DNA of 64,000 nt. Origin: Geosiphon pyriformis uo1 (lineage: Eukaryota; Fungi; Glomeromycota). Made by a program: the position numbers and the translations under genes. Below the pieces are notes generated by a model. It worked only from the letters and a program-made list of their open reading frames with translations. It made no database searches and had not been told where the DNA came from. Positions 7,623 through 59,279 of the stretch are shown in pieces. How positions within the stretch are numbered: the stretch's first letter is position 1; each line of letters begins with the position of its first letter. The stretch lies in NCBI GenBank assembly GCA_016748015.1, contig JAAOMT010000258.1, forward strand, positions 560,173-624,172. The letters are read 5' to 3'.

Positions 7623-7680
<58 letters not shown>
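7623..7680. repeat. (TTA)n microsatellite within an AT-rich intergenic patch (~6550-7760)
   Basis: Direct reading: about 19 tandem TAT/TTA units. Confidence 0.95.
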
Positions 7681-10886: not shown

Positions 10887-11101
10887 GAATAGACAAAGAA
10901 TTGCATATATCAATTTTAAATGGGATGTCATACCAAAATAACAAAAAAAACCTAATGATTTGATGAATATGCCGTGTTTTAATCGCATCTCAGCAAATAT
11001 TTGATTCCGCATCTAGCCTTGTCTTCTTTGTGTCAATTATTACCTTCCTAATGTCAAGGTGGTCACTTTGAAACTTAAATTTATCTACTATTTTTGATAA
11101 T

Positions 11102-12075
11102 TTAAATTAAAATAGGTTCATCAATTGGGGGAGGAAAATCAATTATGGGTTTTGATTCATCCTTAGGAGGTAATTTATTTCCTTGGGGAGCTTGGATTAG
11201 CCATTCTTTTGGAAATATATAGTTCGGATGTTTTCGCTTAATATGACGTAAATCAATTGGAATATCGGCAAAGGTATCTTTCATATCCTATCAAAGAAAA
11301 TATTAATTAATAGCCGCCAAATTGAGACTCACGCGCAAAAATGCTATTGAAGTTAAAAAACAAAGGGAATACTACAGTTACCTTTGCTTCATTAACCAAA
11401 CGATCCAACAAATCACTCAAATACTTTTTATTTTGTGCTTGATGGGGGAATTTATCACAAACAAATTTAAGCGAGCCTCGGAAGGGCCACTCCTTGTCAT
11501 TGAATGTTTGTTTCCATGGCGCCCCTTTGGGAAGATTATAATGCGGCCCACATAATACTATAAATTTGTGTGCTTGAACACGAACCATCTGTGTTTGCAA
11601 GATTAGATCACTAAGTTGAAATGTTAGTACAACTTTTTTTTCAATTGGGCTCGGTTCTCCTATTAACCATTGCGTTTGAAAGCAAAGTATTTGTGACTTT
11701 TTCGGTGGAATGAATGGCTCTATAAACTCTAGAGACAAAGGAAAAAAAATTGACGTTGGTTGTTACCAAAAACTGTTTAAAAGAAGACTTAAAACGTAAA
11801 ATGCTAGGCCTACTATTAAGTTGGGGTATCTCGTATTTAGTCTTTCGAAGGTACTTTCGCACCTCACGTTGTGACCACAAAATCTCCTGCCCAGTTGAAG
11901 TCATATCGTCGAATCGATATTCATCCATTCTTTCAACGTCATAGCCTGCCTTTTCACGCAAAGGAGCAAGCCGACGCTGTTTACGGGCATTTGGGACGAA
12001 TGTAGTAGAAAAGAATCTACGAGGGGTTAAATTTGAGTGTGTGTTGAGCGAAATTAGGAATGTCCTTTTTAACAT
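11102..12075 (-). CDS. RSM24: Mitochondrial small-subunit ribosomal protein mS35/Rsm24, 3 exons
   Basis: Presequence MLKRTFLISL..PRRFFSTTF. FDDMTSTGQ..QREVRKYLRKTKYEIPQL, EPFIPP, EKKVVL, HKFIVLCGP, CDKFPHQAQNKKYLSDLL..L.NEAK, DTFADIPIDLRH..FPKEW. Confidence 0.88.
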
Positions 12076-31423: not shown

Positions 31424-32597
31424 TATTACAAAACAAATATTTGATTAACATTGCATATATTGAATAAACTTGCTTTAATATATTTGTTATCTATTTCTTA
31501 TATATTATGAACTCAAAAAATTTCAAATTATTAAATTAAAAGACATTTGTAATTATTTAACTTTTTCTCTTTTTTAATTTCATAATTATAAGCAAAACAA
31601 AAAAAAAAGTTTTTTAATAATAAAAACAGTTAGGAAAATATTTTAAAAGTGTTATTTTAATATAAAGCAATTTTTAATTTTTTAATTTTTTTTTTCAATT
31701 AAAGTTTTTAATAATTGTTTTTGCTTCAATAATCAAAAAAATCAAAGTAATTTTTTAATATTACTGCAATAAATCTTTTAAAATTTTTTTGGTCTATTAA
31801 AACAAATTAACAATAATTGTATTATTTAATGTAATTATTTTTAATAAATTATTGCTAATTATAAAAACAAACAATTATGTTTTATTATATAACTTTATTT
31901 AATTATATTATGATAACATAAAAATAAAAATATTTTTTTTATTTTTGTAAAACTTTTATTAATTTTAATAATATTTATGCAAATATTTTTATTTATGACT
32001 TAATATTTTTTATAAAAATTAAATTAATTTATGCTAAAATTGTTTTTAATTATTATAAATATTAAATTTATAGTTAAAAATAAATTGATTAAATTTTTTA
32101 ATTGTACTTAAAATTACAAAATTTAAATTAAGTTTTAATTTTGTTTTTGTCTTTACTGTTATTATATATTGTAATATTTTTTTAACAATATTAAAAATGT
32201 TTTTAAAGTATTAAACTATAAAATTAAAATTTATTGTTTTATAATAAGATATTGTTATTTATTTTAAAAATATTAAATTTGCTAATTATATTTTTAATTA
32301 TTAGTTAAATTTGATAAAAAAACAATATTAAAACCAAATTAATTTAATATAATTATTTAAATATATAATTAAATATATATATTTTAACTATAAAATAAAA
32401 AATAAAAAAAAAACATACAAATACATATTTAAAAAATCAATTTATTAATCTTAAAAATAATATAACAAAAATTGATTAATTTAGTCTTAAAAAATTTAAA
32501 TATTATTTTTTATTATTAAAATTAATTAGTAAGCAAAAATTATTTTATTAGCTTTAAATTTTTTAAATACATAATAATATATTATTATTAATTAACA

Positions 32598-35500
32598 TAA
32601 TATGACTGTTAGTCTGTTTGACATATTTAATAAACTATAGAAATATTGTAATAATATAATAATAAGATGTTTTTTAAATCTGTTAAATTTTTGTTTAATT
32701 TTCAGTAATGTTTCAGCTTTTTGAAAAAGAGTATAAATTTTTATAATCTTTAAACTTTATAATTATGATGTCATTTTTACAAATATATAATCTATTGTAT
32801 TAATTAAGACAATAAAAAAAATTTTGTTTAAAATTTTATTAAACCATATTTTTTTTTATTTATAATAAGTTTAATGTTTTTTGAGATAACAACTTTTTGG
32901 TTTTAAAAAGTATCTTGACTTAATTTTTTGTATTTATTGTCAGTTTATTAATAGAAGGTGTTTTAAAAAAAAACCATAAGATTTAATTGGTTTTACAGAA
33001 TATATACAAAGCTTATAATTTGGTTAGATAACATGATTTAAAAACTAGTTTAAAGTGTGTTAAGATATATAACAAATTTATTAAATTTTTTGAAAACATA
33101 TACATAAATAGAATCAATTAAATAATAATTGATTTTGGTCTATTTAATGACTACAAAGTACTTAATAAACTAAACTAAAATAAAATTTTCTCACTATTTC
33201 TTTGGAAAATTTTTTATGATTTTTTTTTGTACAAAATGAAAAAACATAAACACTTATGTAAATATAGATTAATTACAAATTTTGTAACAAAAATAAGCAA
33301 AACAAAAGTTAGTAAAAAAAGATCTTTCTTTTTTGTAACTGATGTTTTTATAGATAATACAATTTAGATAAAAAATTGTCAGATATTAACACAATATATT
33401 TTGAATATTGCTAGTAAATTTTTTATGATTAATAACATTTCTATTAATACTGATAAAACAATAATTATTTTCATCAATTAAAAGATTATAAATCTTTTTT
33501 GCACATTAGTAATTAGCTAATTTCTATTATTAAGCATAGTAAATTTTACAGATACTTAAGAATTTTTTTGTTAATAAAAAGTATATTTAAGCTAAATTTT
33601 GTTAAAACATATTCAGATATTAAATTTTTTCGAATATAATACTTAAAAAAATATTGTTAAATAAACAGTTTTTTTATTTAGTTTTAATAATCTTGTAATT
33701 TATAATTAGTTATTGAATGCAATTTAGTTTTATGGCTAAAAATATATATTAAAAATAAAATATTATGATTAGAAAAAAGTTTTAATTTACAACTAATTTG
33801 TTAAAAGCCTTTTTTAATAAAATTTGTATTACTTATTCTTATATAAATTAAAATCTTTTAAGCAAATACAAGTAAAAAGCAAGATAACTTTGGTAATTAG
33901 TGTTATCATTAGAAAATTAAGATATTAATTAGAATAAATTTATTTTATAATTCTTATTATTAATTAATATATATTATTATTTCAATTTATTACTTATTAT
34001 TTTATCAAGTTATTCGAATTATTATTTAATTAATAATCTAATTTGTATAATACACAAATTAGATAATTTAATTACATAAAATCTTGAACTATATAGTATT
34101 CAAAAATTTACCAAAATTTGTAAAAATTTGCTAAAATAATTAATAATTTACCAAAATACTAAATAGTTTATAAAAATAACTTGTAGTTTGCCAAAATATA
34201 TTTTTAGTATAGTAAAATAATAGCAAAGAAAAAAATACAAGTTTATAAACTAATACTATAACAAATTGTATAAAAGAAAAGCTTTTCTTTTCAAGAAAAT
34301 ATATTTTAAAAAATAATAATAATCTTAATTAGAATTATCTTTACTAAAAATATTTTCTTTAATATCTATACAAATTATTTCAATAAAAATCATATTGAAA
34401 AAAAAACAACAAAAACTTAAAGTATTTTACATGAAATTTTTTAAATCTCAACTAATATTTTAAAATTAATTAATTACTAATTTTAGTAATTAATTAGTAA
34501 CTCTAAACTTAAACAGAAAATGACTCTCTTAATAAAATTTTCTTTTTTTTATATTTTTTATATATATATATTTTTTTTATTACAATTATTAAGATAAATT
34601 AAACAAGATTTCTGTAAAAAAATTAACTTTTATAGCAAAGTAACTACATAATTTTAGTAAGCTTTCAAATAAACATTACTTGAAAAAGAGTTAATTTTTA
34701 CTACAAAATAACTATATAAATAATTAATATAGAATTGGCTATTTTATTTATAAATTCAGCAGTTCAAATTATAGAAAATAATTTGAAAATAAATTCAGTT
34801 ATTAGAAACTCACTAGCTTTTAATAATTAGAAATTAACAACAAAGTAATAACAATAATATTTAAAAAAAACTAAAAATCTCCAATAATATTGGGTTTTTT
34901 AATGCAACAAGAATTTTCAGTTATCTGTTTGAACACTATTTTTTAAACTTGCAAATTGCAGATTGGATGTCAATAAACTTACTGCAATATTCAGTCAAAT
35001 TAAGAGTTAGTTCTATAAATAATTTTTTAGTGAACATGATAAAAATTTTTTTAAACAACAAAATTTTTTTAGCAAATAATTTGTCTAATGTTTTTTATTC
35101 TTTTAACCATTTTTTAATATTTAAAATTTTAAGTAATTCTTATTATTTTAATATAATTTGTTTTTTAAAGTGTTTTGGAGTTGTCTTTAGAAACAAGTTA
35201 TTAGACAAATATAGATTGGTGATAAATTGGAAAACTTTTTGTTATTGGAAAAAATTAAGTTTCAAAGATCTAATTTTATTGTGATTTATGAAGACTTTAG
35301 TTTATATAAATAATTTTTTTGTTGGAACTAATATAATTATTTTTAGCTTTGGTTGTTCAAATTTTTTGTGTTTAAAAAAATTTTCGAATATTTGGAAATA
35401 TTTATACAAATTATAAATTGGAATAATTAATGTTTATATTAATAGTTTATTAAAAAAATTAAAAATAATAAAAGTAGTTAATAAGATAACAGCTTATTTT

Positions 35501-36850
35501 TTTGATATTAGAATAAAAGTAGATGTTAAGGTTTATAAATTGTTGTTATTAACAATAATAAAGCTGCAGGTAATTGTCTTGGTTTTGAAATATGTTTTAT
35601 TATCTTGTTTAGTAATTTTGTAAACAAACAGTCAAGCTGCTATAAATATGTATAATTTAAAGCTTAAGTAGTTTTTACTAGATTTTTAAAACAAGTATTG
35701 AATAAAAAAACACCATTTAGTTAATTTGATCAAGTTTAAGAATATTTTGGTATAATAAATAAAGGTTAAAAACACTTAAAAGATGTTGGCAATAATTAAG
35801 CTAATGCTTTTGCTAATGTTATAATATAGTTTTATGTAGTCTTTTTTATTGGTATTTATAAAAAATTTTATTGTGGCTAATAATTTGGTTATTTTAAGCA
35901 ATACTCATTATTTTGTTTATAATATTTATCAAGTTATTTGTTGTGCTTAATAGAAAACAGATTTAGATTTAAGTATTGTTGATAAATTATTTATTTATAA
36001 AATAAACTAAACTTGTATTGTTAAAATTTGGTATTTGGATTTTTATATGCTTTCTGAGTTTATAAGTAAAATCTCAGTAGTTTTATGTATATATTTGATA
36101 AAAGCAGTCTACAAAAAATTGCAAATTATGATTAAAAAGAAACTGTATAACAAAAATTATTTAGACATTCTCTGTTTTTTATATGATAATATTAAATTAC
36201 TAAATCATATTTTTATTTATTTAAAAAATATTTCTATATGCTTTGAAATTTTGTTAAATTGTATTGAGTTGTAAAAGTTTTTAATAGAAGCTTGTTTTTT
36301 TTAATATTTTCAGTGCTTTAAACTTTTTTATAGTATATATTAAATATAAACATTTACATAATTTTATATAAGAGTTTTGTTCTCAAAAATTGAATTGATA
36401 AGATAATATTAGTTTTTGGTAATAAAAAAAGGCAGTTTTGATAGTAATTAATTTTGTCTACTATCTAATTAAAAAACATTATAGTATATTGTAATTGTTT
36501 AAGTTCAAATTTAAGATAAATATAGAAAAAAGTAACTTAATTGGTAACATAAAAATTTTGTTAGATAATATATTATTATAAGTGATTATTTAAGATGTTA
36601 GAACAAATAACAAACCTATAACTCAATGTTTAATAGCTAATAATTTTGGTAATTTCTAAAGGTTTTGATTGAGTTTTTTTTATAATAAACAGAGATTTAA
36701 TTAATAATTTTTTCATGAATTTTTTTCTTTAGTGTAATGACCAGTTTATTCTGGCAGTTATGTCTTTCTGATAAGCTATTCTTAAATTTTTACTTTTTTT
36801 TTGGGTTTTTTATCAGATTATTCTTAACATTAAATACTTAGTACTTAATT
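32598..36850 (+). mobile_element. Dead, 5'-truncated non-LTR retrotransposon (RT - RNase H - CCHC), interrupted by a solo LTR
   Basis: Degenerate RT catalytic motif VFIDNTI* (~33345; FVDDTIW if transitions are reversed). RNase H VYINSLLK..IIKLQVI..TNSQAA (YTDGS..AELQAI..TDSQAA). C-terminal LCFLYDNIKLLNHIFIY (C-x2-C..H..C zinc knuckle). A-rich tract at ~36870-36925. The ancestral peptides are inferred by reversing C>T and G>A. Confidence 0.8.
33901..34889. mobile_element. Solo LTR-like element, family A copy 1, inserted in the LINE
   Basis: Starts TGTTA and ends TA (from CA). Flanked by TTAG/TTGG 4-bp TSD. Removing it restores the LINE frame (GTA ATT GGG TTT). Aligns to 37501-38422. Confidence 0.75.
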
Positions 36851-37224
36851 TTTTTAATTAATTAGTAAACAATAAAGAAATAAAATAAAAAAAATAAAAA
36901 AAAATAAAAATAAAAAATAAAAAATTAGTATTTTATTAATAGCCATAATTAAGAACTATTGGTCTAGTATAGTTTAGTATTAAATTTTATTCACATGAAT
37001 TGTTAATAGTAAAAAAGTAATTAATATTCTTAATTAAGCAATAATAACATAGATTGGATAATAATTAAATATTTTATTAATATTAATATAATTTTGTTTT
37101 AAGTTATAGAAAACTATCTTTTAAAAGAAAAAATATTATTGTTTTAAACTCTATTAAATTCTGAATTGAATTTTTTTCTGCTTTTAATACTTTTACTATA
37201 TATATATAATTTATATTATAAAAG

Positions 37225-37378
37225 ATTCCTTAAAATTTTTTAATTTTTTTAAAAAGAATTCTAAAATCTTGTAATTCTAAAATCCTGTAATTTTCTGAGA
37301 AAAATTCTAAAATTCTGCAATTCTTTAAAAAAAATTCTGGAATTCTGCAATTTTTTGAAAAAAATTCTAAAATTCCTC
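37225..37378. repeat. Degenerate ~30-bp minisatellite
   Basis: Units such as aaaattctaaaattctgcaattctttaaaa and aaaattctggaattctgcaattttttgaaa. Confidence 0.75.
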
Positions 37379-37500
37379 TTTTTATTATATTTACTTTTGA
37401 TTGGTTATTTTACTTATTATTATAATTCTTAATTTATGTAAGTAACAATATATAAATTGTTTAATATTTTGTCAAAAAAAATGATTTGGTTACTTGATAT

Positions 37501-38422
37501 TGTTATTAATAAAATTTTAGTTATTAATTAATATATTATTATTATTTCAAATATTACTTATTATTTAATCAAAATTATCAAATATTACAATTCAATTAAT
37601 AACTTAATTTATATATTAGAAATTAGAATAATCAGAAAATTTACAATTCAAACTATGTAACATTCAAGAATTTGCCGAAATTTATAAAAATTTGTCAAAA
37701 TAATAAATAGTTTACTAAAATAGTTTATAATTTGTAAAAATAATTTGTGGTTTGTTAAAATATATCTTTAATTTGCCAAAATCATAGCAAAAAAAAAGTT
37801 TAAGTTTATAAATTAGTATTACAACAAATTGTATAAAAAAAAAGCTTTTTTTTTGAAAAAATATATCTTATTTATAATAATCTTATTCTTAAATAATAAT
37901 CTTATACAAGTTAATAAAAACAAATACTTTAAAAAATAAATTCTTTTAATTAAATTATACTTGAAATTCTCCAAAACTCAATTAATATTTTGAAATTGAT
38001 TGGCTACTAATTTTAATAATCTGTTAGTAACTTTAAACTTGAACAAAAAATACTTTTCTTAATAAAATTTTTTTTTATATTTTTTATATTTTCTTTTATT
38101 TTTTTTATTATATATATTAAAGTAACTTATAAACAAAATTTCTGTAAAAGAGTTGACTTTTATAGCAAAGTAACTATATATTTTTAGTAAGCTTCTGGAT
38201 AAACAATTTCTTGGAAAAAGTTAACTTTTACTGCAAAATAACTATACAAATAACTGACATAGAATTGGTTATTCCATTTATAAGTCCAATAGTTTAAATT
38301 ATAAAGGATAATTTGAAGATAAATTCAGTTATCAGAGGTTTAACAGCTTTTAGTAATAATAAATTTACAGCAAAACAACATTAATAATATTCAGAAAAAG
38401 AGACCAAAAATCTTTAGTAATA
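37501..38422. mobile_element. Solo LTR-like element, family A copy 2
   Basis: TGTTA...GTAATA termini. Colinear with 33901-34889 over most of its length. Possible TSD ATAT/GTGT. Confidence 0.72.
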
Positions 38423-38426
38423 GTGT

Positions 38427-39678
38427 TGTTAAATTATTTGCTATTAGTTTTGGTTTATATAAAATTTGTTTATTTTTTTTAAAATTAAATAATAGTATAA
38501 ATATTTGTATAAGTATGTAGTATTGTTTTAATTAGTCTAAGTGATTAGTTATATGTAGTAAGTACATAAATTATATTTAGCTGTAATTATTTGGTTTGTT
38601 TTTATATGCTAGATAATAATTGAACTGTACTTATTAAAAATAAAAAAAATTAACAAATTTTAAATTATTTTAAGAACTTTATTAAAAAATAATTACATAA
38701 AATAATAGCAAAAATTAAAACAACAACAAATATTATTAAAAATTTAACAATTATTAAAGCAATAAAAAACAGAAAATTAGTAAGTTAAACTTAAATAATA
38801 ATATTTAAAAATATTTAAAATATAAATTTCATATAAAATAGCTTAATATTGTTTTTAAAAACCGATTTTATATTAATAAAAACACATATAAACCAAAAAA
38901 CAGTCTTAATATAAACCTATTTAATTTTAAAAAAAGCATTAAATATTAAAGTAATAATTATTTATTTAAAAAAATTTTAATAATTAATTATTAAAAACAA
39001 TATTATTAAAAAACAAAAAAAAAGTATTTTAATTTTTATTTAATTAGTTTAATTTTCGAAATTAGATGACTTAATAATTTAATTAATTATAAATACTTAA
39101 AAATATTTTTTTTGTTTTTAAAATCAGCAATAATTAATTAAAAACCAATATTTTAAACAATATAACCAAAAATTAATCTAAATTAAGATTAGTTAATATA
39201 TTTTTATTGTTATTGTTTAGAATAAAAAAAAAATTTTATTTATAATTATAATAAAATTAAGTATTATAATTGATATAAATAATATTAAATTAATAAAAAT
39301 ATTAAAAAAAAATAAAAAAAATAATTTTAAATTAAAAAAATTATTATTAAACATAGCAAAAATTTGAAAAAATTATATTTTAATTAATTTAATTTTTATG
39401 GTTATTTAGATAACAATAAGAAAAAAAATAGAAAAAAAATAACTTGATTACTAATTTATTTTATTTTAATAAGTATAGTTCTATTATTATTTAATACAAA
39501 AAATCAAATCAAAAAACTTTAACTAAATATGACTTATGTATTTATTACATATGATCAAATATTCAGTTTAATTAAAACAATATTACATATTATCCAAACT
39601 ATTATATTGTTATTTAATTTGAAAAAAAACAAACAATATTTATAAAAATCAAAATTAATAGTAAAAGTCTTATTAATA
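38427..39678. mobile_element. Pair of ~230-bp inverted repeats (38427-38655 and 39449-39678) enclosing ~790 bp
   Basis: The reverse complement of 38427-38655 aligns along 39449-39678. The first arm has TGTTAA...TTAACA termini. Confidence 0.65.
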
Positions 39679-39719
39679 CTAAATAATTATACTATATTAT
39701 CTAATAAGTAAAAAAACAA

Positions 39720-42700
39720 AAAATAAAACAACCCAAAAACCAAGTTTATATTGTTAATTTTGCTATAATGTTTTATATTTATTCTAAATTTTGATCTAAA
39801 TACTTATATTAATATCTTATAATGTTTTATAATTTGGTAAGCAAAATTTATTATTATTAAATATCAGCATTGTTTTTTTAAACTAGTTATTTATAATAAA
39901 ACTTTTATACAAAATCTTATACAAACTAATATCAAACAAACTTAACAAAAAAGTTTTTATAATTGTTAAAAAAAACAACAACCTAATACCAACCAAGAAT
40001 TTTTATTTAATAATTATTTTTTAAATTATATCTATATGTAAATCAGTATCTTTTAGATAAATAAAAACATAATCAGAGATTTCTATTTTGTTGTATAGCA
40101 GACACAGTACACTAAAATAATATTTGTCATAAAGTTTTTTCTTAATAATAACAAATAATTTTCTATATACTGTTTTTATTAAATAAGTATATAAACTCAA
40201 CAATACTTTGTTAATATAATCAAAACATATGTAAAAATTCAGATATTAAATAGCCACAGTCTGAATTCAATCATAATTCTTGAATTAAAACTTATTTTAT
40301 AACAAATATAACAGATTAAATTAAAAATATTACACAAAAAATAACAAATATTTCTAAATACAAACAAATAATCTACAACAATAAACTTTTTTTGAACATA
40401 ATGAAAAAAAAAACAAGAATAAACAGTAATACTTACAAGTATATTTGCCTAATTGTTATTCATATTATCTAAATAACTTTTAATTTTTACTTATCTTATC
40501 AAAAAAATTTTGTTTTAATTAAATTAACTATATGTTGCTGCTTAATCTAATAACTAGTATAAAAATCAGACTGCCATAAATCCAAACTCAAAAAGCACAA
40601 ATTAATTGCCATTTGACTGTTTAAATATAAAACTACAGAACAAAATAAAAGTACATATTTTAGTATTAAAACAATGGTTTATAATTTAACTATTATTAAA
40701 AACATTAGATTTTAAACTTCTATTTTAATACTGTTATAAAAGCATTTTTTTAGAGATTGTATTATAATTAATTTCTAATATAGTTTTAAATCAAATAATG
40801 ATATTAGAAATTATCTAATTATAATATGTAAATAAGTATATTAGTCTTAATAAATACTATTCTTAATTTATGTTAGATTTTTGTTTGATAGATTAATACT
40901 ATTTTTTTTATGAAAATTAACTTGGTAAATTTTTTCTAATTCTTAGCAAGTATTAAATAATTTTTTCTGATAAGTGTTTTTTTATTTGATTTAATATTTT
41001 ATGTATTATTTCTATTAAAATTGTTGTTAGTAGTTATTGCTATATTAATTTTTTTAGAAAAATTTCTGTTATATTTCTATATTTTAATTGTGTTTTTTCT
41101 TGAGACTTGTATAAATATATTTTTTTTTATAATATGCTAATACCAAATATTTGTATTTTTTTATTTATAGTAAAACAATACTTTATTCTTAATAAATATA
41201 AAAAAATTCAAAAAAACAAAATTCAAAAAAATTAGTATTTGAAAATAATTTTGATCAAAAATTATTTTTCCAAGACATAAAAAAATTATTTTGGATTTTT
41301 AAATTAACTGTTTATTTTTAATTAAAGTATTATTATAAATAGATTCTATACAATTATATATAGTTAATATTTTTCTAATGTGTTTTTAATTTTCTTAAAC
41401 TTAGATTTTATCTGTATTTATTATTGTATTAAGTATTTTGTTGTTTTTATTAATAAGAAATAATAATAAGAGGTTTAATGATCTTTTTTAAGATTTGGAT
41501 TATAAAAAAGGAAGGTTTTTAATTTTACTAATTTTAGTATTAGTAGATATTATAATACAAAGCTAAAAAAGTATATTTTCTAGCTTTTTTTGAAATTATA
41601 ATCTAATTTGTTTGTTTTTTGTTTTTTTATTTTTGTTTAATTGATTTTTATTTTTTTGTCTTTTTTAGAAAGCTATTATATATATATATTTTTTAAATTA
41701 TACATAATTGTGTATATTCTAATTAATTAGTAAGTAATTACTAAGTTATTAAGTCTTTTGTTTAATTGTAAATGCTTTTTGGCTTACTTGTTTATGATTA
41801 TATTAAATTAAATATATTTGTATATATTTTATATACTATTATATATATATTATATTTTCTAATTTTATTTATTAATTTGTGCTATTTATATTGTTATTTA
41901 CTGATTGATTAATATATTATAATATTATTATTTTTGATTTTTGTTAATTTTTATTAGATAATAATATTTATATTAATATTTAAAAAAAATACCACTGTTT
42001 TACAAATTATAAACAAAAAACCAATACTTTTTAATAACTTATTAATATATATATTAAAATATTTAGATCAAACTCTATGTAATTAATTTTAAATAGTTAA
42101 AAACTTATTAGAATTTAGAATGTTTAAAAAATTATAAACAAAAAGTGAGCTCAAAGATACATAATAGAAATTGACCATAAATTTAAAAATTATATCAAAT
42201 CAAAAAATGCTAGATCTCTTAAATTAAGTTTTTTCTAATAGCAGAACGTTTTTTAATTTATTATTTTATTATATTTATTTAATAACTTATTATTAAAACC
42301 CATATCAAAATACTTTAATAAGTCTATTATACTATAATAATAAAAGACTCTTAAAATTATGAACATTAAAAACTTGCCAGAATAACAGAAAACATTAGAA
42401 AAATTATTAATTAAGAAGATTTTATTGTTCAAAAGAATTTTCATTATATTCACAAAAAAATTGTTTACTAAATTAATTTTCAATTTTATTAAATATTATA
42501 ATAGATCTATAGATATTTATCCTAAAATTTACAAATCTAAAAAATGATAATTAAACAGTCATTTAAAAATATTAATAGCATTAAAAAAGACAAACAATAC
42601 AGCAATTTTCTCTTTTGTTTGAACTTGTTTAAAAAAACTTTAAATTATACAAAAAAAGATAATATATAGTTTTGTTAAGAAAATTTTTTAATAAATTAAT

Positions 42701-45700
42701 CTTAGTTTTAAGTTTTTTTTATATTAAAGTATTTTATTTGTTATATACATTTTTCAAAACAAAACTAAATTGTATTTTATAACTTACAATTGATTGCAAA
42801 ACTGCAAACACTAAATAAAAAACTGCTTATTTAATAAAGTTTTTTTTAATACCAAGTTAAAAAAAATCTGATATCTTAATATGTTTTAGTCAAACTAGAC
42901 TTTAACATATCTTTAATTAACAAAAAAATATTCAAATATCTATAGGATTTGCTTTTTTTTGCTATTATAATTAATAGTCTACTAATAAACAAAAAAACAT
43001 TTTTAATTTTTTAATTAATAAAAATAACTATTGTTTTTTTATTGTTAATTAAAATATTATTGATAAAAAAAAACTTATTAATAATGTTTAAAATATATTG
43101 TATAAATACATAACTATTTTTTATCTAAATTATATTATTTACAAAAATACTAAATACAAAAAACAAGATTTTGCTTGAACTGGTTTTAATTTTGTCTAAT
43201 ATGGTCAAATTTAATGTTAATTTGGTTTCTGCACAGATGCTTATGTTTTTTAACTTTACATAAAAGTAAATTGTAAAAAATTTTCTAAAAAAAAGACAAA
43301 AAAACTTTATTTTAATCCAATCTATTATGTATTTTGTATTTATTTAAGAACTTAAACTTTGTTATAACTTAATTATCTTTATTTTTATGCAAACTGCCAA
43401 AAAAACTAATAAATTTTTTACATATTTTTTTTTACTTTAGACTTTACTATAAATAATTTTAACTAACAGAATTATAAATTTTATACATATTCTACAAAAT
43501 CAATTATATTTTTTGGCTTTTTTTTAAAGTATTTTTTATAATAAAACTTACCATAAAAACAAAAATTTGCATAGAAATATCTTTAAACACTAAGAAATTG
43601 TTTTCATAAAATACATTAAACTTATTATAAACAAAAAAAACAAAATTTTTCTAGTTGTTTTAATTAAAACTATTAATTTAATATTTATTAATATTACTTT
43701 CTATTTATATAACTTTAAAATTATAGACATCTAAGTTTTTCTTTAAGAAATAAGAACAATTTTTAAAACCAAACAACTATTTAACAAATTTAAAAGACAT
43801 TTTAAATCATGTTTATTACAATACTTTTACAGCTTATTTAGATGCCAAACAAATCTACAGCTTTGCTATTAGAAAAACTTTTAATAGTGGATTTTAATTT
43901 ATCCAAGCTAATTGTTTTTATGACTTTAAAAAAAACACTATTATTTATGTAATCTAAAGACATATACTGGCAAAACTAGATTAAACATGGTTTTTAGCAT
44001 TAAATGCTTTTTTGTTTATTTTTTTATGATCATATTTATCTTAAGTTTTATTTTATTTGGCTTTAGAATCAACTTTTTTCCAATTATCAAATGATCTAAC
44101 ACTATTTTACAAAAGAGTTTTTTTAAAACAAATCTAATTATAAAATTTTTGTCTATGTAAAAAATTTTTATTCTGGTTTTAATTGTTTTTTTAATAGTTG
44201 TAACTTTAACAATCTTCAATTTACATAATTTAAAAACTTAATATTTTTTTCTAGTTTTAAACAAATACAACAGTCTTTATAATTTTGGAAATTAATATTT
44301 TTAACTTATAAAATCTAAAAAACTGCTTGTTTTTAAAAGTATTAAACACATTATACTAATATCTAAAAAAAAGCTTTATTAATTAACTTAACTATTACTT
44401 TTTTTAAAATTTTCTATATAAGTTTCAAATCTTTTTGCTTTTTTATATTTTGAAAATTATTCAAATTTATAGATATTTTAAATAACAAGTAATCCTTAAA
44501 ATGCTTTTATTTTGTATTATTAACATCTTTTATTTTAAACTTTTAACAATTTTTATTAATTTATTTATAAATAACAATTAAATAAATATTCAAAAAATCG
44601 TTCAAACCAAAAAAACTGAGACATTTTTGTAGTCAGTATTAAAAAATTCAAAAACATTAGAAATTTTCCAGTTTATTAATATTAATAAAAGATATTTATT
44701 AACAAAAATATACTTAATAATCTTATTTACATTTCTTTAATTGTTTCAAATTAATAGCTTAGATATAATATCCTTATAAAATGAATTATATAAACTCAAA
44801 TTAAAATATTTCTTAAAACTTATATACTGTTTAAAATTATTTTTATTAAAATTTTCACTTAAAACTATATATATATTGGTATTAATAATATTGGCAATAA
44901 AATTATTAATACCAGCAACCTAAAAAAATCTAGCTTTAAATAAAACACCAATATAAAGCCCAATAACAAACAATAAAACTTTGTTTTTGAAAAAAACTAA
45001 ACAAAAATAATTTGACCAAGAATTTTAAAAATCTTAAAAACATAATAAACCAGAAAATTTCTCACTATTAATGTAATACTCAATTTTCTAAAACCTATAT
45101 CTATATCAGAATTAAATACATAAATTTTATTAAATTTGTTTTTAATCCAAAGCCTAATATTTGTTCTTAATTTAATTTCAGTAATAAATAATATCAAATT
45201 GTTTATATCTTTGTACTATCTAATAATATTATTTTACTTAATTTTATTGTTTATACTTTAATATTATAGATAACAAACTTCTAAACCATATTACTTATTG
45301 AGATAAAAAAAATATTAAAAAACTTAAGCTAACATATAACTAATTTAACCTTATTAAAACTAAACTAACAAAAATCTTAAAAGCTACTATTTTTGACTTT
45401 AGACTACTCATTTTAATAGTTAAGGCTTTAAAGCTACTTAAATTTAAAACTAAAATCTTAACAATTATCAATAAAAAAAAAAGAACAATATTTGTAATTT
45501 ATTTAAATCCATGCTTAAATTTACATCTAAATTAAAAGTTATTAAGTCTTTTAAAACAAGAGAAAAAAAAAACCAATAATGCTAAATTTATATTACTTAA
45601 TTTGTATACAATACTAGATACTTAATTAGCCAGTAACTTTAAAAAGTGGTTTAAAAAAACCAAACAAATATTAATAAATAAAACATTTTAAAAAAAATAA

Positions 45701-47130
45701 AAGATCTTAAGGCACCAAAAAAAAAAACCAGAGCCAAAATCAGAGTAAATATTATTAGAAACAAAAATCAACAAAATTACTTAAGCCCAAAACTTATTAT
45801 TAAAAACAATAGAATATAAAATAAAAATACTCTTTTTAATATATAATTTGGTTAACTAAAAGCAATTTTCTTTTAATATATACTTTTTATATATCTTCAA
45901 AAATAAAAAGAATACTACACTTAAAATATATATATTTTTTATATTAAACCAAATTTAATTTAGCCTAAAAAAGCTTTATACTATTTAAAACTGGCTTTGT
46001 ATAAAAAACTAACTCCAAATTATCTTTTAATTTAAAATCAACTACAGTATAGTTAACTTTATTGTTAATTTTAAATCATTAATTAATAATACAGATTTTT
46101 TTACTGACTTTTTTTAATAAAACAGCAGAATTATAAACAGTTATTTCTATAAACAAAATAAACAAAAGTGTTTTAAACCAATTTTTAGACATCTAAATAT
46201 CATAATTTTCTACAGTTTTAATTACATATACTGAATTTTTTTGATTAGAAACAATTATTTAAATATTAGCAAATTAGCTTGATTTGATTTAATAAATTCT
46301 ATTACAGTTTTTTATTATAGTTCAATTAATTGTAATTAAATTAATACTATTTAATAATACTTAGTTATTGCAGTAATAATCATATTTTTGGCATATTTAT
46401 AAAAATTTTCTTAATTATTACAGTTTAATTTGAATAATAACTTTGTGTTTTAATATTATTGTTTACTTTAATGCTTTTTTTTAACCAATAATACAGTTTT
46501 ATTTATACTTTTTTAATATAAATGTAAATTTAATAATTTTTTTAAATTTTAAAAGAGTAATAGCCTTTCTAAAACTATTAACTATTAAAAAAAATTTCAA
46601 ATAAACTGAATTTTTTTGGTAACTAATTTGTTTTTTATTGCTAAAAAATTAATATTCAAAGCAAATGACTTTTTAATTGGTATTTTTACTAAGTTTTAAT
46701 AATTTTAAGATTAATTTATCTTCTGTTCAAGAAAATATTAAGAAAAAATAGAAAAAGTTCAATATTTTTTTTTATTTTGAAATTAAAAAAACCAAAAAAA
46801 GATCACAATTTATATCAGAATTTATTTTTTTGGCTTTAAAAATAATAGTAGCTAAATCTAAAAAAAACCTATTATTAATATTAATTATAATACTATTGTC
46901 TTCACTATTACTAAACTTATTGTCTATATTCGAATATATATTATTACTAAAACTAAACTTGACCAAAAAAACATCTTTCTTATTATTAGAATATTTAATA
47001 TTATTAAAAATAACTCTTTTTTTTGAGAAAAAAAGCCATTAACAAGATCATAAAAAGCTTCTTTGAGCATTTTTTTCTTAAGCATACTATTACTTAAAGC
47101 AGCTTTTAAGTTTATAATAAAGGGGTTATT
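39720..47130 (-). mobile_element. Dead, near full-length non-LTR retrotransposon (ORF1 - APE endonuclease - RT - RNase H - CCHC)
   Basis: ORF1-like start near 47100. Endonuclease ILFITEIKL..WIKNKF..VF (44997 ORF). RT IFVNNII* (~43125). The ORFs at 42253 and 40021 are paralogous to the + copy ORFs at 34949 and 36035. RNase H is split by an insertion. Confidence 0.8.
40732..41963. mobile_element. Solo LTR-like insertion (~1.23 kb) inside the LINE RNase H domain
   Basis: Starts TGTTA and ends ATAATA. Flanked by ATAC/ATAT. Excision restores the minus-strand frame NINISIKIEV. Confidence 0.65.
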
Positions 47131-50100
47131 AACTTAAAAAATATTAAAAAATAATAACAAAAAAAACAAAAAATTTCATTTTCTAAAAAAATGCTCTTTA
47201 AAGAATTTTAGACATAAAAAATAAAGAAGTTTATAATTATGAATTTTTTATTAAAAACTTTAAAACTTTTAGCAAAACAAAAATTATAAAAAAGAAAAAT
47301 TTTTAATTAAAAACAAAAATAATTTTAATAATTTTATTTTAAAAAAAATTTATTAAGTAATTTTAATAATTATAAATGTTTTATTAATAAATATTTTAAA
47401 AAATAAAAAAATTGCATTTTTTTTAATTATTTAATAAGTAAAATCGAATTGTTATTTAATATAATACAATAGATAAGTATTTTAAACTAGATACAACTCA
47501 TATATTTTTTATATATAACTAATATTATTCATAAAATAAAATAAAAAAGAAATAATTAATAATATAATATAAATTACCAAATTATATAATATTAAAAATT
47601 TTAAAAATGTCAAAAATTTAATAATAATTTAATAAAATTGTAGAAATTTTATATTGTAAAGATTTATATAGTAAAAAAAACAAACAAAAATTTTTAAAAA
47701 CAAGTTAATTTTATCTTATTAAGTAATTTTTTCAGTTAGTAATTTAATACTTAAAATTTATATTTATTTAAATAAATTTATTATTCATATTATTCAAATT
47801 CAATTTTATGAATTTATACTTATTTTATTAAAATTTAATTACTTTTTTATTTTTATTTTATTTTTTCTGTTTTGTTTGTTTTGTATTTACTAATTAATTA
47901 AAAAGTATTAAAATTATAATATTAAAAATTGCCTAATAAAAACATTAAAAAAAAGTATAAAATATATTTAAAAACTAAAATTTATTTACTAAATAAAAAA
48001 CACTAAAATAAACTAATTATTATATTAAAAAAATAAAACATTAAGTATTAATATTTTTTATTTATTAACTAATTTATAAAAGCAATACCAAATCTTTTTA
48101 AAAACTAAACTATTTTAAAATAAACAATATTTAAAATATTAAACATAAAAATATTCTTAATAAACCAAAAAATTTTAAACAAATTATTTATAAGAAAAAT
48201 ATTATAATTTATAAAAACTTTAATAACTTTAGCCAAAAAATTGTTTTAAAAATTAATATTTAATTTGTTAAATATTATAAAAAATTTTTGGATATCCAAT
48301 TTAATATTTATAAGTTTATAGAATAATTATTAAATAAATAGCTTAAAATATTACAAAAATTAAAAATAGTTATAGTAATATAAATAAATAAATAATAATA
48401 TATGTTTTTTTATTAAATTTTTTTAATAATATATTAAGATTATATATAGTTATACTTATAAATAAAATATATAAAAGTGTTTTAAACTAATTTTTAAATA
48501 ATTAAGTAACATAATTTTTAATAGTTTTAACTATATATATAGAGTTTTTTCTAATTAAGATAAATTATATTAATATTAAAATATTAATTTAATAATAATT
48601 ATAGGCTAATTTAAATATACTTTATGTCTTTTAAAATTGTTGTTTATTAAGATCTTTATTTTATATATTAAAGCTTTAGCTTTAATTAAAGTTTTTTTAA
48701 AAGTAAAGATAAATTTAATAATTTTAAGAAAATAATAATTTTTTTAAATCTATTTATTAAAAAAAATTTTTTTTTAATAATCTGTATTTTTGCTGTAATG
48801 TTTTTTTTTAATTACTAAAAAATAAATATTCAAAACATAAGATTTCTTAATAAATATTTTCATTTTTTTTTTGATAATTTTAAAATTCATTATTTTTTTT
48901 TAAAATAAGAAAGTTGAATAAAAAAAATTATTTATATAATAGTTATAAGCACTAATAAAAAGACCAACTATTATATTAATATTAAATTTTTTATCTTAAA
49001 AATATATATTTCAAAATTAAGATAAGATTAATTTTTATTATCTGTTTTATAATTATTATCAGTTAAAAAAATACTACTTATTTTTTTAAAAATTTGTTAA
49101 TAATAACTAAAAATTTGTTTAAAAATATTTTATTTTATTTTTTAAATACCTAATATTTTTAACTAAATTTTTTTGCTTTTAAAAAAAAGTAATATTAATA
49201 AAATTATAAACAAATTCTTTTACTATCTTTTTTTTGTTATGCTATTATTAAAAGCAAATATCAGATTTATTATAAAAAAGTAAAAATATTGAGAAATATA
49301 ATAAGTAAAAAACAAAAACTTTTTTATTAAAATAATGTTTTTTAAGAAATTTAAAATATACAAAAAAAATAAAAATTTATTTTTATATTTTTCACTTTGG
49401 TTATAATTATGAAAATACATAATATATACTTATTATTAGTATTTATATGTTTTTTACTAATAATATATTTAATTATAAAAAGAATTTTATATAATGCTAA
49501 TTTAAATTATAAATAATTATATATAATTAATTATTTAAATTAATTAAAATTTTTTTATTCAATATCTATTTAAGAATTTTTTACTATTATTTATAATAGT
49601 TTATATATTTTAATAATACAAAAATATTTTTATTAAATATTATATTTTTTAAATTATTTTTAAATTTATTATGTTTTTATTATTTTTATATTTAAGTATT
49701 ATAATTATTTGTTTTTTTAATATTATTTTTGACATTCAAACTTTTTTTAATTAATTTTATAATTTATAATTTTGTTAATTTATTTTATAATTATATTTAC
49801 ATATTAAATTTTTTATTTAAATATTTTATTATTTTTGTATAAGTTTTTATATCTCTTTTTTGTTGTTGTTTTTTTTATTAACATTTATTAATTTATTAAA
49901 ATTAAATTTATTTTAGTTTTAATTGTTTATATTTAATTTAAAATATAAGTTATTTTAATTTTAATTAGTATTATTATTATATTTAAAAATATAATTTAAC
50001 TTTTTAATATTATTATATGTTTATTTTTTAAACCAAATTTTAAATTATTATTAATTTTCTAAATTTTCACAACTTTTTTTTGGTTTATTTTATTAATAAT

Positions 50101-50944
50101 ATATATTTAAAATTTAATAATTTTAATAAATTTCTATTTTATACAAAATTTTTTTAAATATAAATTTTTTATAACCTTTTTTATATTATAAAATCTAGTT
50201 ATTTTTTAACAATTTTTGAAAAATATATTTTTTTTGATTAAATAATATTTAATTATATTAATAATTAAGTTGTTAAGTTTAAATTTAATAATAATTAAAA
50301 AAAATATTTTCTTTAATAATTTTTTAATTATAATAAATATATAAGTTTCACTTATTAAATAAATAAATAAATAAAAACATTGTTTTAATATTTATAATCT
50401 ATTTTTAAAATCATTTTAAATCATAATAATAAATATATAAAAATCAAAAAACTTTTTTTCTTATTAATTCTTTATTTATAATAAAAATTAAAAAAAGCTA
50501 AAAAAATATTTTACTCTTTTACTTTTTACTCTATTTTTTAATAAATTACTTTTTCAATATATTTTTGTTTGTAAAAATAAATTTAATAGATTTTTTTGTT
50601 AGTATTTTAAATATAAACAAAGCTAAAATAGAAATTTATTTTAATATAAGAAAAAAATTATATCTATATATATTTATAAAATACTAATAAAAAAGCTAAA
50701 AAAATTATTTTTAAGATTAATATAATTGATTAAATAATAAAATAAATAATATTAATAATGTATTAAATATTAATAACTTAAAAAATTCAATTATAAAAAA
50801 AATTTATTATGTAAATCTAAATGATTTAAAAGATATAAATAAAGTAATTTTATGAAAAATTTATATTTAAATCTATAATTTAATTAAACTATTATTATTA
50901 ATTTTTTTTAATAACATAAATAATAATAATATTTTAAACTTTTT

Positions 50945-51200
50945 TTTTAAGTCTATTAATACAAAATTTTTAATGTTAACTACAAAAAAAAAGTTTTAAT
51001 TTAGCGATTAATATAGTAGTTATTAATAAAAAAAATTTAAATAATAAGTTAAAATTTGATAAAATTATTTTATCAAATAATATAATTTTAAAAATATTTT
51101 TATTAAGTCTATTAATATAAAATTTTTAATGTTAATTACAAAAAAAAAGTTTTAATTTGGCTTAATATTATAATAATTAATAAAAAAAAATTAAATATTA
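50945..51200 (+). repeat. Local direct duplication (~60+ bp core, copies ~156 bp apart)
   Basis: ttaagtctattaatacaaaatttttaatgttaactacaaaaaaaaagttttaattt recurs near 51103 with C>T differences. Confidence 0.8.
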
Positions 51201-51219
51201 AATAACTTATAATCAAAAC

Positions 51220-51460
51220 TTTTTATAAAAAAATTAATTTTTATAACAAAATAACTAAATATTATTAAAAAATTTACAAATAAAATATTTTTGAAAAAGT
51301 TAATTTTTACTACAAAACAACTATACAAATAATTAATATAAAATTAATTCTAATATAAACTTAATAATAATAATAATTCAAAAAAAATACTTTAAAAATA
51401 AATTAATTTATTAAAATTTTACCAATTTTTATTCAAAATAATATTAACAATATTAGCAAA
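51220..51460 (+). mobile_element. Third, more degenerate fragment of LTR family A
   Basis: gttaatttttactacaaaacaactatacaaataattaatat matches 34690-34730 and 38220-38260. Confidence 0.65.
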
Positions 51461-54400
51461 TATTTAAAATTTTTAATAATATTATTATAAAATAGTTAAA
51501 AATATTGATTAAATATTAATATAAATATTATTACTGTTTACACAAACAATTTTAATTAAAAACTTAGATTTTTGTAATATAGTTATAAGTATTGTTGTCT
51601 GTTTTTTAGATTTTGATTTTAAATAAAAGTTAATATTTATAATGTTTTTTAATTTATTATAATTATATTAATAATATTATTAATATAAAATTAAAACTTA
51701 TTTTAACATAATTAGCAATAAATATATTAACTTTTTTACTAGTAATTTTACATATTTGTCTTTTATTTTATGTTTTAATATTTATAAATAATATTTAATT
51801 ACAAAAAACTAGCTTATTTTTAAAAATACATAATATTTTGTTAGAAAATTGTTTAATTTTGTTAGTTTTATTAAATAAAAATTAAAGTTTACTAAAAAAT
51901 TTGTAAACAGAATATTTGTTTATAATTTTAATTTGGTATATATAATTTTAATTTAATAAACTTAATATTTTTTGCTTTTTGTTTTTATTTTATAAAAGCT
52001 TTACATAAAAATTTGTTGATTATTATAAAAAAAATTATATGTTTTTATATATTTAAGTATTGCTTGCTTATATTATAAGTTGTTAAAAAATTCAGATTAT
52101 GTTTTCTTGTATAATATTAATTTTATTATTAAAAAAGATATTGTTTTTAATATTATTGTTAAATAAATACATATTTCTAATTATTTGGCTATAAATTTAT
52201 TAATTATTTAATTATTATATAATATATTTGTTAATAATATTATAAAAATATTTTTTTGGTATATTAATTATAATTAGTTTTTTGTAAATTCTTTAATTTT
52301 ATTTGTATAATAATATTGATATTATATTAAAGACTTTTTTATTGATATTGTAATATAAGTTATTTTTTAAATTTTAATTATTATGTATATTTATGTATTT
52401 TTTTTAAAGATTAATTTAAAATCTATTCACAATAGTAAAGTCTTTTTTAAAACTATTTTTGCAATTATCTAAAGTATTTTTTTAATTTAAAACATAAAAT
52501 ATTAATAGTTTTTAGCATTTTTTATAATTTTTATAATAAATTTTTTATCAATTAATAATAATATAAATAATTTTGATTAGAAATTATTTTTTTAAAGAAT
52601 TCAGTTAATAAATAATAGTTTTATTTAATAAATAATACAAATAAGTTTCTTAATATTTTTAATTATAATAATTCAAATTTTAATATTATTTTTTATTAAA
52701 AATTTCGTTGAATATTTATAAAAAATAAAAATAAAGATAGATTTATTAAAATTGTTGTTCTTAAAACTATTATATATATATATGTTTATAATTCTATAAA
52801 AAATATATTATAATAATTTTTTTTAATATTTTAATATAGTGCTTACTATAATTATAAAATAATACTTGTTATTATATTAATTATTATCTTTTTAAAATTA
52901 TTACTGTGCTATATTATGATTGAATAATTTATATTATTTTATAAATTTTTACTAAATTTTTAAATCATAATAATTATTATTTTTATAAAATTGTAATTAA
53001 AAATTTGTTTTAAAATATTTGTTTTTTAAGACTGTAAAAATATTTGATAATACTAAAAAAACTATTATATAAATATGTAATAAAAGATTATTTATTTTAT
53101 ATTTAAATTTTAATATATAAATTAAGAATATAAATAGAGATTTAAAATAAATACAATTTTAAATATGTATTTTATTATTTTATTATAAAGAATAAAATTT
53201 AATTATCATAAATTATAAAATATATATTTTTTCAATGTTAATATTAAAATTAATTAAAGCAATTTTCTGTTATTTATTATAATATATTAGGATTAAATTG
53301 TTCAAATTTTCAATTTTTTGGTAAATTTAAGATTAGGAATATATTAATTATTATAATAATTTATTTATTATATATTATATGTTATAAGTAAAAGCTGTTT
53401 GTTTAAAATTAGATCTTAAAATACTTTTATATTAATGGAGAAGAGTTTTTTGACCGTTTTTAATATTTATGGTTTTAAAAAGTATTCTAGTATTAATGCT
53501 GAGATTAGAATTTGTATATGAATTGAACTTTTTTTTTTAAGATGTTTTATCAAAAAGTTTTTATTTAAAAATTTTTATTGATTTAATATTTACTTTTTTG
53601 AAAGTCATTTTTGTAAATATTCAAAAAATTATATTATATAAAAAAAAATCTTAATAAAACTTAAATTTGCAATTACAAATTTTAAAAATCTTTAAAATTT
53701 TCATTTTTTAAGGTTTAAAATTTTTATTTTTAAGGTTTAAAATTTAATTTATGTATGAAGTGACATTTAATATATGAAACTTGATGAATTTGATTTTATA
53801 AAAAAATCAAATAATTTAATATAGCAAATTTTTTTGTTTTCCTTCAGTATTAAAACTTTGGTTGAACAATTATTTTTTTAAAAAAAAGATAAAGAGTCGA
53901 ATATTTTAAAAATAAAATTCCATTGATTATAAACTGCAACATGATTAAATTAATAGATTTTTCACAAATATATTTGTGTGTCCTGAATTGAAAATTGGAA
54001 TAGTCAATGTTTTATTCCAAAAGTGGTCATATTGTTAGTATATCGAAAAAAATACTAAATGATCAAAAAAAAAAATATTTTTCTTGAATTAACTGTTTAA
54101 ATATCCTTGAATTATTCATAAAAGATAAAAAACTAAAAAAATTGTTGTAAAGATGCTATAAATTTTTCTTATATTTGAATGGCTCTAAATATTTTGAATG
54201 TGAAAAAAGTTTATTTAAAAGTTTTGCTAGATTTGAGATTTTTTTGTTTGTTTTGTAGTTTTTTTTTTTTTTTTTTTCGTTTGATGGTTAAAAGATTTGA
54301 AAAATATGGTTGATTTTTCTTTTATTTAATTTCATAATATAAACCAGAAGTTAAGGCTTCATTTCCATGATATAAGTTAACGATCGAATTTCAATTTTGT

Positions 54401-54869
54401 AAAATTAAAATCGTGTTAATTTTGAAATATTTTTTCTAAACAAATCTTGAAACTTTTTTTTTTTTAAGTAAGTATTTTTGAAATCTTTAAAAAATTGAAA
54501 AATAAAATAAATAAATGCTATAATTCTTTTCTATTGTATTTATGAACAAGATTTCAAATTTTTGTAAAAAGTTTTCTATAGTTTCCCCAGCTGAAATGAT
54601 TAGTATAGCTATAATTAATTTTTACTAAACTGCAGATCACGGGATTTGAATTAAACCCACCCACACAAACAAATATATCAGAGGTTTAAATAATGATTTC
54701 ATCTTAATTATTTTCCCTTATCGCTATGATATTCCTGCCTGTCAAAAATGGCGCGTTACACATGATAATTCTGAACCAAATTTGTCCGAAAACATTGACT
54801 ATTTTAAAGGAGTATATAAAAACGTCATTTTTGAACAATAAAATTAATTGAATAATAATGTATTGCCCT

Positions 54870-56078: not shown

Positions 56079-59279
<3,201 letters not shown>

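Follow-up and report, generated by a model that had tools for sequence, protein, structure and literature searches.

Does a fungus outside the Dikarya inactivate its repeats by C-to-T mutation in the way that repeat-induced point mutation (RIP) does? The question is raised by a stretch of 64,000 nucleotides from Geosiphon pyriformis uo1 (contig JAAOMT010000258.1, positions 560,173 to 624,172 of the forward strand; hereafter the window, in which positions are numbered from the first letter), where a nest of retroelements lies beside a threonine dehydratase gene (ILV1). The original prediction, made from the sequence, held that these retroelements had undergone repeat-targeted C-to-T hypermutation on both strands, a RIP-like genome defence in an apparently early-diverging fungus. 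Our analysis confirms a real, repeat-confined C:G>T:A hypermutation, in all sequence contexts, in a Glomeromycotina fungus. The outcome is RIP-like but two of the RIP features tested are lacking, and the phenomenon is probably best filed as a variant of methylation-linked repeat mutagenesis.

C:G>T:A changes on both strands and in every context

The hypermutated repeat block (31424..53400) has a GC content of 13.6%, with CpG nearly absent (12 observed against 101.2 expected, Poisson P = 3e-29), GpC enriched and TpC depleted. Per kilobase, GC is 8-18% between 32 and 54 kb and 33-44% in gene-rich kilobases, and the observed/expected (O/E) ratio of CpG is 0-0.5 in the block and 0.6-1.2 in the flanking genes, in line with the claim that the flanks had kept normal GC and CpG. 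On the left side the last CpG stands at 31373 and the signature sets in no more than about 200 bases from the ILV1 start codon; on the right it fades near 53400, and the edge first placed at 54500 was not borne out. The most AT-rich part, 49-53.4 kb, has a GC of 8.7%.

Changes were polarised against a protein reference of the long interspersed nuclear element (LINE) family present in the block, using codon positions 1 and 2 of those columns in which 60% or more of the family agrees; residues near gaps, with a low posterior or with less than 24% local identity were removed. C had become T at 155 of 262 sites and G had become A at 367 of 591, while the reverse transitions numbered 11 of 710 (A>G) and 6 of 787 (T>C). 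Transversions were few (A>T 20, T>A 13, C>A 8, G>T 13, A>C 12, T>G 3, C>G 2, G>C 1), and every class other than C>T and G>A stood at 0.2-3%. C>T and G>A together account for 522 of the 611 polarised changes, a rate about 30 times that of the reverse (30:1) with an equilibrium GC of 3.2% (2.3-4.5%). Both strands are hit (C>T 0.59, G>A 0.62), as had been predicted, so that the block shares with RIP both the dominance of C:G>T:A transitions and their presence on both strands. A first pass with tblastn agrees (C>T 113/191, G>A 274/456), and the C:G>T:A load of the seven LINE segments ranges from 0.54 to 0.72. The amino-acid signature noted beforehand was likewise recovered, with D>N 45, E>K 36, H>Y 22 (0.69) and C>Y 19 (0.59), and 35 of 43 W codons have become stops. 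The middle G of TGG, which is CpA on the opposite strand, was lost oftener than the last G (TAG 13, TGA 4).

The changes are not restricted to CpG: strictly non-CpG changes number 143 forward against 4 reverse, and besides H>Y and C>Y the non-CpG classes M>I (13; 0.81) and T>I (23; 0.51) are affected. The C>T rate is 0.43-0.75 in all 11 testable context/strand classes. Among non-CpG contexts TpC is highest (0.75) and GpC lowest, with CpC at 0.53-0.75 and CpA at 0.58-0.63, so that no CpA preference was found in the block. CpG is the fastest-lost context and 5'-pyrimidine contexts come next. The surviving NCN trinucleotides, as ratios of block to genic DNA, rank accordingly: NCG (0.06-0.20) lies far below YCH and YCH below RCH, TCT being an exception (TCA, TCC, CCC and CCT 0.45-0.53; non-CpG GCN 1.8-2.5). 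In other family copies, too, arginine columns with CpG codons are the least conserved class (R kept in 0.385 of 867). The CpA O/E of the block is about 1.0, the TpG/CpA products having themselves been erased, and none of 22 one-kilobase segments passed the RIPper thresholds, as these are given in an excerpt of PMC7882544.

No patchiness was found within the window copies (P = 0.21, 0.26). LINE copies 1 and 3, described below, were mutated independently (Fisher P = 0.17), and the changes therefore arose after insertion. The nested, younger long terminal repeats (LTRs) have a rough load of 0.48, against 0.55 for the LINE pair.

Raw transition/transversion ratios between copies come out too low to reflect the process, since a C lost from both copies leaves no difference and older divergence remains at third positions; they were therefore dropped as main evidence in favour of the polarised counts. 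The hand count made earlier on 34691-34810 against 38221-38340 is exact (22 transitions, no transversions, gapless), and both copies were indeed hit, T or A standing in the first copy at 16 of the changes and in the second at 6. This stretch is nevertheless the best case, as only 2 of 88 sliding 120-column segments are free of transversions (median 14 transitions, 7 transversions). The whole solo-LTR pair differs by 107 transitions and 52 transversions over 731 gap-distant columns, and the ratio is 0.7-2.0 across 10 other repeat pairs. Between LINE copies 1 and 3, 88 of 129 transversions lie at third codon positions, which we read as subfamily divergence that probably predates insertion.

Introns and intergenic DNA are spared

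Single-copy DNA was examined in 15 introns (15 of 69 splice joints, from spliced contigs of two sequencing runs over 8.2-26 kb). Their GC is 22.6% and their CpG count 11 against 11.9 expected; no CpG loss, GpC excess or TpC loss was seen in them. Equally, non-coding DNA in which no repeats were detected (7.7 kb) has a GC of 21% and 83 CpG against 87 expected, and fourfold sites in host open reading frames (ORFs) have a GC of 36% (690 sites, in an ORF set that may include some intron bases). The polarity expected from intron and intergenic GC is 3.4-3.7:1, against the 30:1 of the block. By these controls a general AT bias is rejected, and the proposed contrast between repeat block and single-copy DNA is upheld: confinement to repeats is a further feature in common with RIP. 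The same spectrum in introns, which was to refute the original prediction, was not seen. An artefact of sequencing or damage is rejected as well, since the pattern is confined to repeats and recurs in other gene models; the comparison of one sequencing run with the window gave three differences, too few for a spectrum. Among the four runs listed, none of RNA is on record as containing the window, and the best DNA match may be the window's own sample and so lends no independent support.

The same LINE family across the Geosiphon genome

A phmmer search with the reverse transcriptase (RT) frame at 42700-44100 returned 248 related proteins, and all 10 matches that were looked up are G. pyriformis hypothetical proteins. 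In a further search, the best 120 of 423 matches came without exception from G. pyriformis and fell into 90% clusters of one member each, and the ESM Atlas gave generic RT/RNase H clusters only. RVT_1 or RNase_H was found in 8 of 10 scanned family members, mostly below the Pfam cut-off, and PF03372 in some. From this architecture (endonuclease, RT and RNase H in one ORF2, no LTR), the family can be assigned to the non-LTR retrotransposons of Glomeromycotina.

The spectrum recurs genome-wide. In 144 of 150 filtered gene models the rates were 0.147 for C>T, 0.142 for G>A, 0.005 for T>C and 0.0015-0.006 for the transversion classes; A>G stood at 0.029, largely I>V and K>R, an excess that we read as erosion of the reference. 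The C:G>T:A load ranges from 4.7% to 31.5% across the 233 of 254 proteins that were scored, and none is zero, in a set from which heavier copies like those of the window are missing because gene models avoid stops. Compared with the gene models, the window copies carry more C>T (0.60 against 0.19) and more transversions (6.8% against 2.4% of A/T-coded residues). No strand bias per gene-model copy was detected (chi2 137 on 143 df, P = 0.62), and no excess of shared changes between copies (0 of 7792 pairs). Nor were there same-strand runs (0.539-0.556 against a null of 0.543-0.547), in a test made at the protein level, where many rounds could hide clusters.

The 254 gene models themselves (P0121-P0374, G9A89 models) comprise hundreds of long 'hypothetical proteins' that are mutated LINE relics with internal gaps relative to the profile, stop codons having likely been bridged by the models. 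In a few cases the relic is joined to host domains, for example to TPR repeats in P0365; P0299, P0321 and P0326 are others.

Related LINEs in other arbuscular mycorrhizal fungi

A metagenome scan found seven distant related loci. One of them (L001:355-8590) is an intact two-ORF LINE of 951 + 1843 amino acids with a GC of 42%, a CpG O/E of 0.38 and a CpA O/E of 1.31; the other six have a GC of 31-32% and a CpG O/E of 0.11-0.45. By these base compositions, the metagenome LINE loci of the arbuscular mycorrhizal (AM) type appear to carry a CpG-only signature. The contig of the intact locus holds a further open frame of 853 amino acids on the minus strand (8914-11475).

Named relatives occur in Rhizophagus, Entrophospora, Glomus and Gigaspora, where clusters hold several members at ≥90% identity, and both R. 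clarus and Entrophospora still have LINE copies that are near-identical to one another. Non-CpG changes in these comparators numbered 217 forward against 124 reverse in 61,028 residues (9 of 10 clusters), although the clusters are of low divergence, partly collapsed metagenome contigs and likely under selection, so that they are not on an equal footing with the block. The comparison suggests that the all-context loss is not a general property of AM fungi.

Elements nested in the block

A profile built from 150 family proteins gave five LINE copies in the block, and 31.4-53.4 kb reads as a nest of one LINE family and solo LTRs. LINE copy 1 is 5'-truncated and lies on the plus strand; its RT part (32605..33900; profile positions 1017 to about 1437; load 0.61) is followed, beyond an inserted LTR, by the RNase H to C-terminal part (34890..36569; profile positions 1437-2020; load 0.55). 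The inserted solo LTR 1 (33901..34889, 989 bp) starts with TG, its terminal CA reading as TA, and is flanked by a 4-base target duplication whose copies differ by one G>A; LINE copy 3 runs uninterrupted across the matching point. Solo LTR 2 (37501..38422, 922 bp), which is 78% identical to solo LTR 1, has a TG start, decayed ends and its own 4-base target duplication, with copies differing by two G>A. A single LTR element spanning both was therefore rejected: the two stretches compared in the original prediction do belong to one LTR family, but to independent solo LTRs and not to the ends of one element. A partial third LTR copy (51192..51450) is 71-73% identical to both.

LINE copy 3, on the minus strand, is near full length overall (about 47100-39450). 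Its 5' part to the RT, including the endonuclease (41957..47115; profile positions 24-1668, tblastn to 47115; load 0.60-0.65), is separated from the RNase H to 3' end (39448..40732; profile positions 1665-2063 at 40732-39591; load 0.60) by an insertion of about 1.2 kb (40733..41956, ends approximate) which bears the block signature (GC 13.7%, no CpG). The plus-strand LINE 3' end at 38423..38656 aligns to 39676-39448 of copy 3 and is likely the displaced 3' end of copy 1. Copy 4 (48018..48782, minus strand) was found by the profile, is internally deleted and has a load of 0.72 on 47 sites only, and fragment 5 (51603..52244, plus strand; RNase H/C-terminal part, profile positions 1718-1945, E = 7e-23) lies inside the 49-53.4 kb part; self-blast matches in 47-53 kb are mostly low-complexity noise. 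None of four read-through element frames gave a domain in a Pfam scan, and identity was taken from phmmer. The elements had been described as colinear and largely in frame: long colinear frames are kept, but frameshifts, many stops and nested insertions break them.

Host gene and flanks

The flanking ILV1 gene (29045..31423, minus strand) is unmutated, and its start codon abuts the block. Its exon at 30165-30782 is 98% identical to G. pyriformis G9A89_010062, the next matches being other Glomeromycotina at 81-85%, and the remaining exons are 100% identical wherever the alignment stays out of introns. The host is G. pyriformis or a very close relative, in the Glomeromycotina and thus outside the Dikarya, as the original prediction had supposed; the other refuting condition set beforehand, an ascomycete host, is not borne out either.

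Upstream of ILV1, 31424-32600 contains no CpG, and its GC past the initial 200 bases is 6-12%. Since an intergenic GC of 21% less 60% gives about 8.5%, this stretch may be single-copy DNA into which the process has spread. The signature extends to spacers in the block for which the window shows no homologue; these may be old repeats or, again, single-copy DNA reached by spreading. A second AT-rich stretch (26200-28400, GC 18%), with no homologue within the window, shows a partial signature (CpG 8 against 18 expected, P = 0.006; GpC O/E about 2.2; TpC near normal) and may represent an old relic of small size or else a spacer that was hit in part. Elsewhere, an ATT trinucleotide microsatellite (7590-7680) sits in an intergenic kilobase of 14% GC with normal CpG, and a kinase-like exon of 431 codons (57308-58603) has a fourfold-site GC of 59%, against 21-41% in the other ORFs measured. 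The window contains no duplicated host genes.

A candidate mechanism and its rivals

We consider it fairly likely that the block is best explained by steady methylation-linked deamination in silent chromatin, through DNMT1 together with DIM-2-type methylation. The spectrum fits this better than RIP, because there is no CpA preference and there are no strand-coordinated clusters; loss that is fastest at CpG, extends to all contexts and is unclustered is what deamination of methylcytosines made by CpG maintenance and all-context enzymes would give. The transposable element (TE) blocks of Geosiphon would lie in silent chromatin densely methylated by DNMT1, for CpG maintenance, and by an all-context DIM-2-type enzyme. 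Methylcytosines would then be deaminated one by one over many nuclear divisions, spontaneously or in an enzyme-coupled manner, with chromatin state rather than DNA pairing as the likely trigger, and the outcome would resemble RIP in its irreversible inactivation and AT-rich blocks. For Geosiphon we infer the methylation, both enzymes and the vegetative, gradual timing. Gradual accumulation is favoured, though not proven: loads of 5-31% in gene models against 54-72% in window copies speak for it, as do the higher transversions of the window copies and the lower load of the nested LTRs, while the lack of a link between load and transversions among gene models, given below, speaks against it. The excerpted text of PMC12344493 lists one DNMT1, two DIM2, no DNMT4/RID and no DNMT5 for R. 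irregularis, in which, according to part of PMC8298701, 32.5-49.5% of cytosines are methylated; DIM-2 is stated to methylate all CpN contexts in a section of the review PMC13297926, and a passage of PMC8016269 has Dim2 driving C>T in repeats during mitosis in Zymoseptoria tritici.

Several observations weigh against steady deamination. The presence of DIM-2 alone does not explain Geosiphon, because R. irregularis has DIM2 and yet AM-type LINEs stay intact, with a CpG-only signature and weak non-CpG polarity. The Dim2 mutator of Z. tritici, as described in an excerpt of PMC8016269, makes more than 98% of its C>T changes at CpA and spares CpG, whereas Geosiphon loses C in all contexts and CpG fastest. 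No unmutated copy is found among the 233 scored proteins, as RIP too would give; gene-model C>T load varies beyond chance (chi2 270/146) and does not rise with transversions (rho -0.12, P = 0.15; tertiles 2.5, 2.4 and 2.1%), where a strict clock expects a correlation, in a test that is blurred by subfamily divergence. Finally, same-strand double hits at GG are in excess in gene models (odds ratio 1.55, against 1.09 for GC and 0.62 for CC), with no such excess in the window.

Some of these points would suit genuine, homology-triggered RIP with a relaxed context, in which duplicates recognised by homology would undergo bursts of mutation by a RID/Masc1-like enzyme during some cryptic stage before meiosis, many weak rounds having erased any clustering. 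It would be the first case outside the Dikarya and invisible to CpA-based screens, and we judge it unlikely. The size of the effect would suit it (60% of C gone, GC of 3% at equilibrium), the long gene models include neither an intact nor a near-identical member of the family, load is unlinked to transversions there, and the middle G of TGG is preferred; moreover, the AM fungal clade is said to have RID in a passage of PMC8298701 that cites Bewick 2019. The newer table excerpted from PMC12344493 gives RID as zero for R. irregularis, however, and the two sources disagree on both RID and DNMT5 in AM fungi in the parts consulted. CpA is hit less than TpC, strand bias and runs are absent even at loads of 5-30%, the RIPper thresholds are never passed, spacers without a homologue in the window also carry the signature, and the family has reached at least 254 gene-model copies, all of which speak against RIP. 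An AID/APOBEC-like deaminase or a repair gap, acting on unmethylated cytosines of TE domains, appears improbable: non-CpG loss is faster where a pyrimidine stands 5' of the C (TC, CC) than where a purine does, which would suit it, as would the mild GG excess, but CpG as the fastest context points to methylation. In its repair-gap form, uracil or T:G repair would be kept out of silent chromatin, and UV damage at dipyrimidines might add to the effect, the fungus living at the soil surface; tandem hits, the mark of UV, are inconsistent, with no excess in the window or at CC. APOBEC-type editing of cDNA is rejected, because the strands are symmetrical, without a one-strand G>A bias, and the copies independent. 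Ordinary neutral decay of old GC-rich elements under genome-wide AT bias and CpG methylation has very little to commend it, even though the non-coding DNA of the host has a GC of 21-23%, and of as little as 14% in single kilobases, window copies exceed gene models in transversions as well as in load, and introns may be constrained or off equilibrium. The observed polarity far exceeds the expected one, non-CpG changes are almost wholly forward, the introns lack the CpG loss, GpC excess and TpC loss, and the block falls to 8-9% GC, under any single-copy stretch.

In this non-Dikarya genome the repeats reach the state in which RIP would leave them, but along an all-context route, which standard indices score as negative. 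This raises the questions of whether methylation alone can do the work of RIP in the absence of sex, what set of enzymes gives loss in all contexts, and why LINEs stay intact in other AM fungi with DIM2. Ages of Geosiphon TEs estimated from divergence are likely inflated, and at least 254 retrieved family proteins are mutated LINE relics, nearly all of them long 'hypothetical' models where names were seen. Were it true RIP, the process would either go back to an ancestor shared by Mucoromycota and Dikarya or have arisen separately, and a lineage in which sex has not been observed would have to pass through a cryptic premeiotic stage.

Comparison with known systems

RIP in Pezizomycotina (Neurospora; dependent on RID and DIM-2) shares with the block C:G>T:A change on both strands, confinement to repeats, AT-rich tracts that are sharp-edged beside normal genes, and dead elements. 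Mutations made by RIP are clustered and strand-coordinated in each round. The RIP-like reading of the original prediction holds for the strands, the repeats and the non-Dikarya host, but the block shows neither a CpA preference nor strand-coordinated clusters, CpG is lost fastest and the RIP indices are negative throughout.

CpG hypermutation of TEs occurs in Basidiomycota and reportedly, by the title of a study by Clutterbuck, in 'some lower fungi', and a TpCpG pattern is known from rusts and Microbotryum. Repeat-associated CpG loss by C>T is common to these systems, the Geosiphon block and the LINE relatives of other AM-type fungi; the block differs in that it has lost mostly non-CpG cytosines, with GC falling to 8-17%.

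Closer in kinship are R. irregularis and Gigaspora margarita, of the same subphylum as Geosiphon, for which excerpts of PMC8647823, PMC8298701 and PMC13443276 describe heavy 5-methylcytosine on TEs and DNMT1 and DIM2 genes. They differ in that methylation was mapped at CpG only (in passages of PMC13443276) and that RIP signatures are reported as undetected in G. margarita or Mucoromycotina in passages of PMC8647823 and its preprint, for which AM fungi are cited as lacking such signatures. A screen of 1,239 genomes (PMC12543289, in excerpt) describes RIP-like signatures as unique to Ascomycota, with a shared CpA preference; its genome table has seven Glomeromycetes and no Geosiphon or Archaeosporales. 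The sections of PMC11952901 that cover Geosiphon TEs make no mention of RIP, GC content or AT-richness. Our literature search found no report of the pattern for Geosiphon or outside the Dikarya, in a coverage that excludes the Geosiphon genome paper, Sorwar 2024, Venice 2020, Bewick 2019, Clutterbuck 2017 and the Zenodo data of PMC12543289, which may bear on novelty. The Dim2 mutator of Z. tritici, as set out in part of PMC8016269, is like the Geosiphon block in being TE-confined and mostly C>T, and the likeness would extend to an all-context methyltransferase that needs no sexual cycle.

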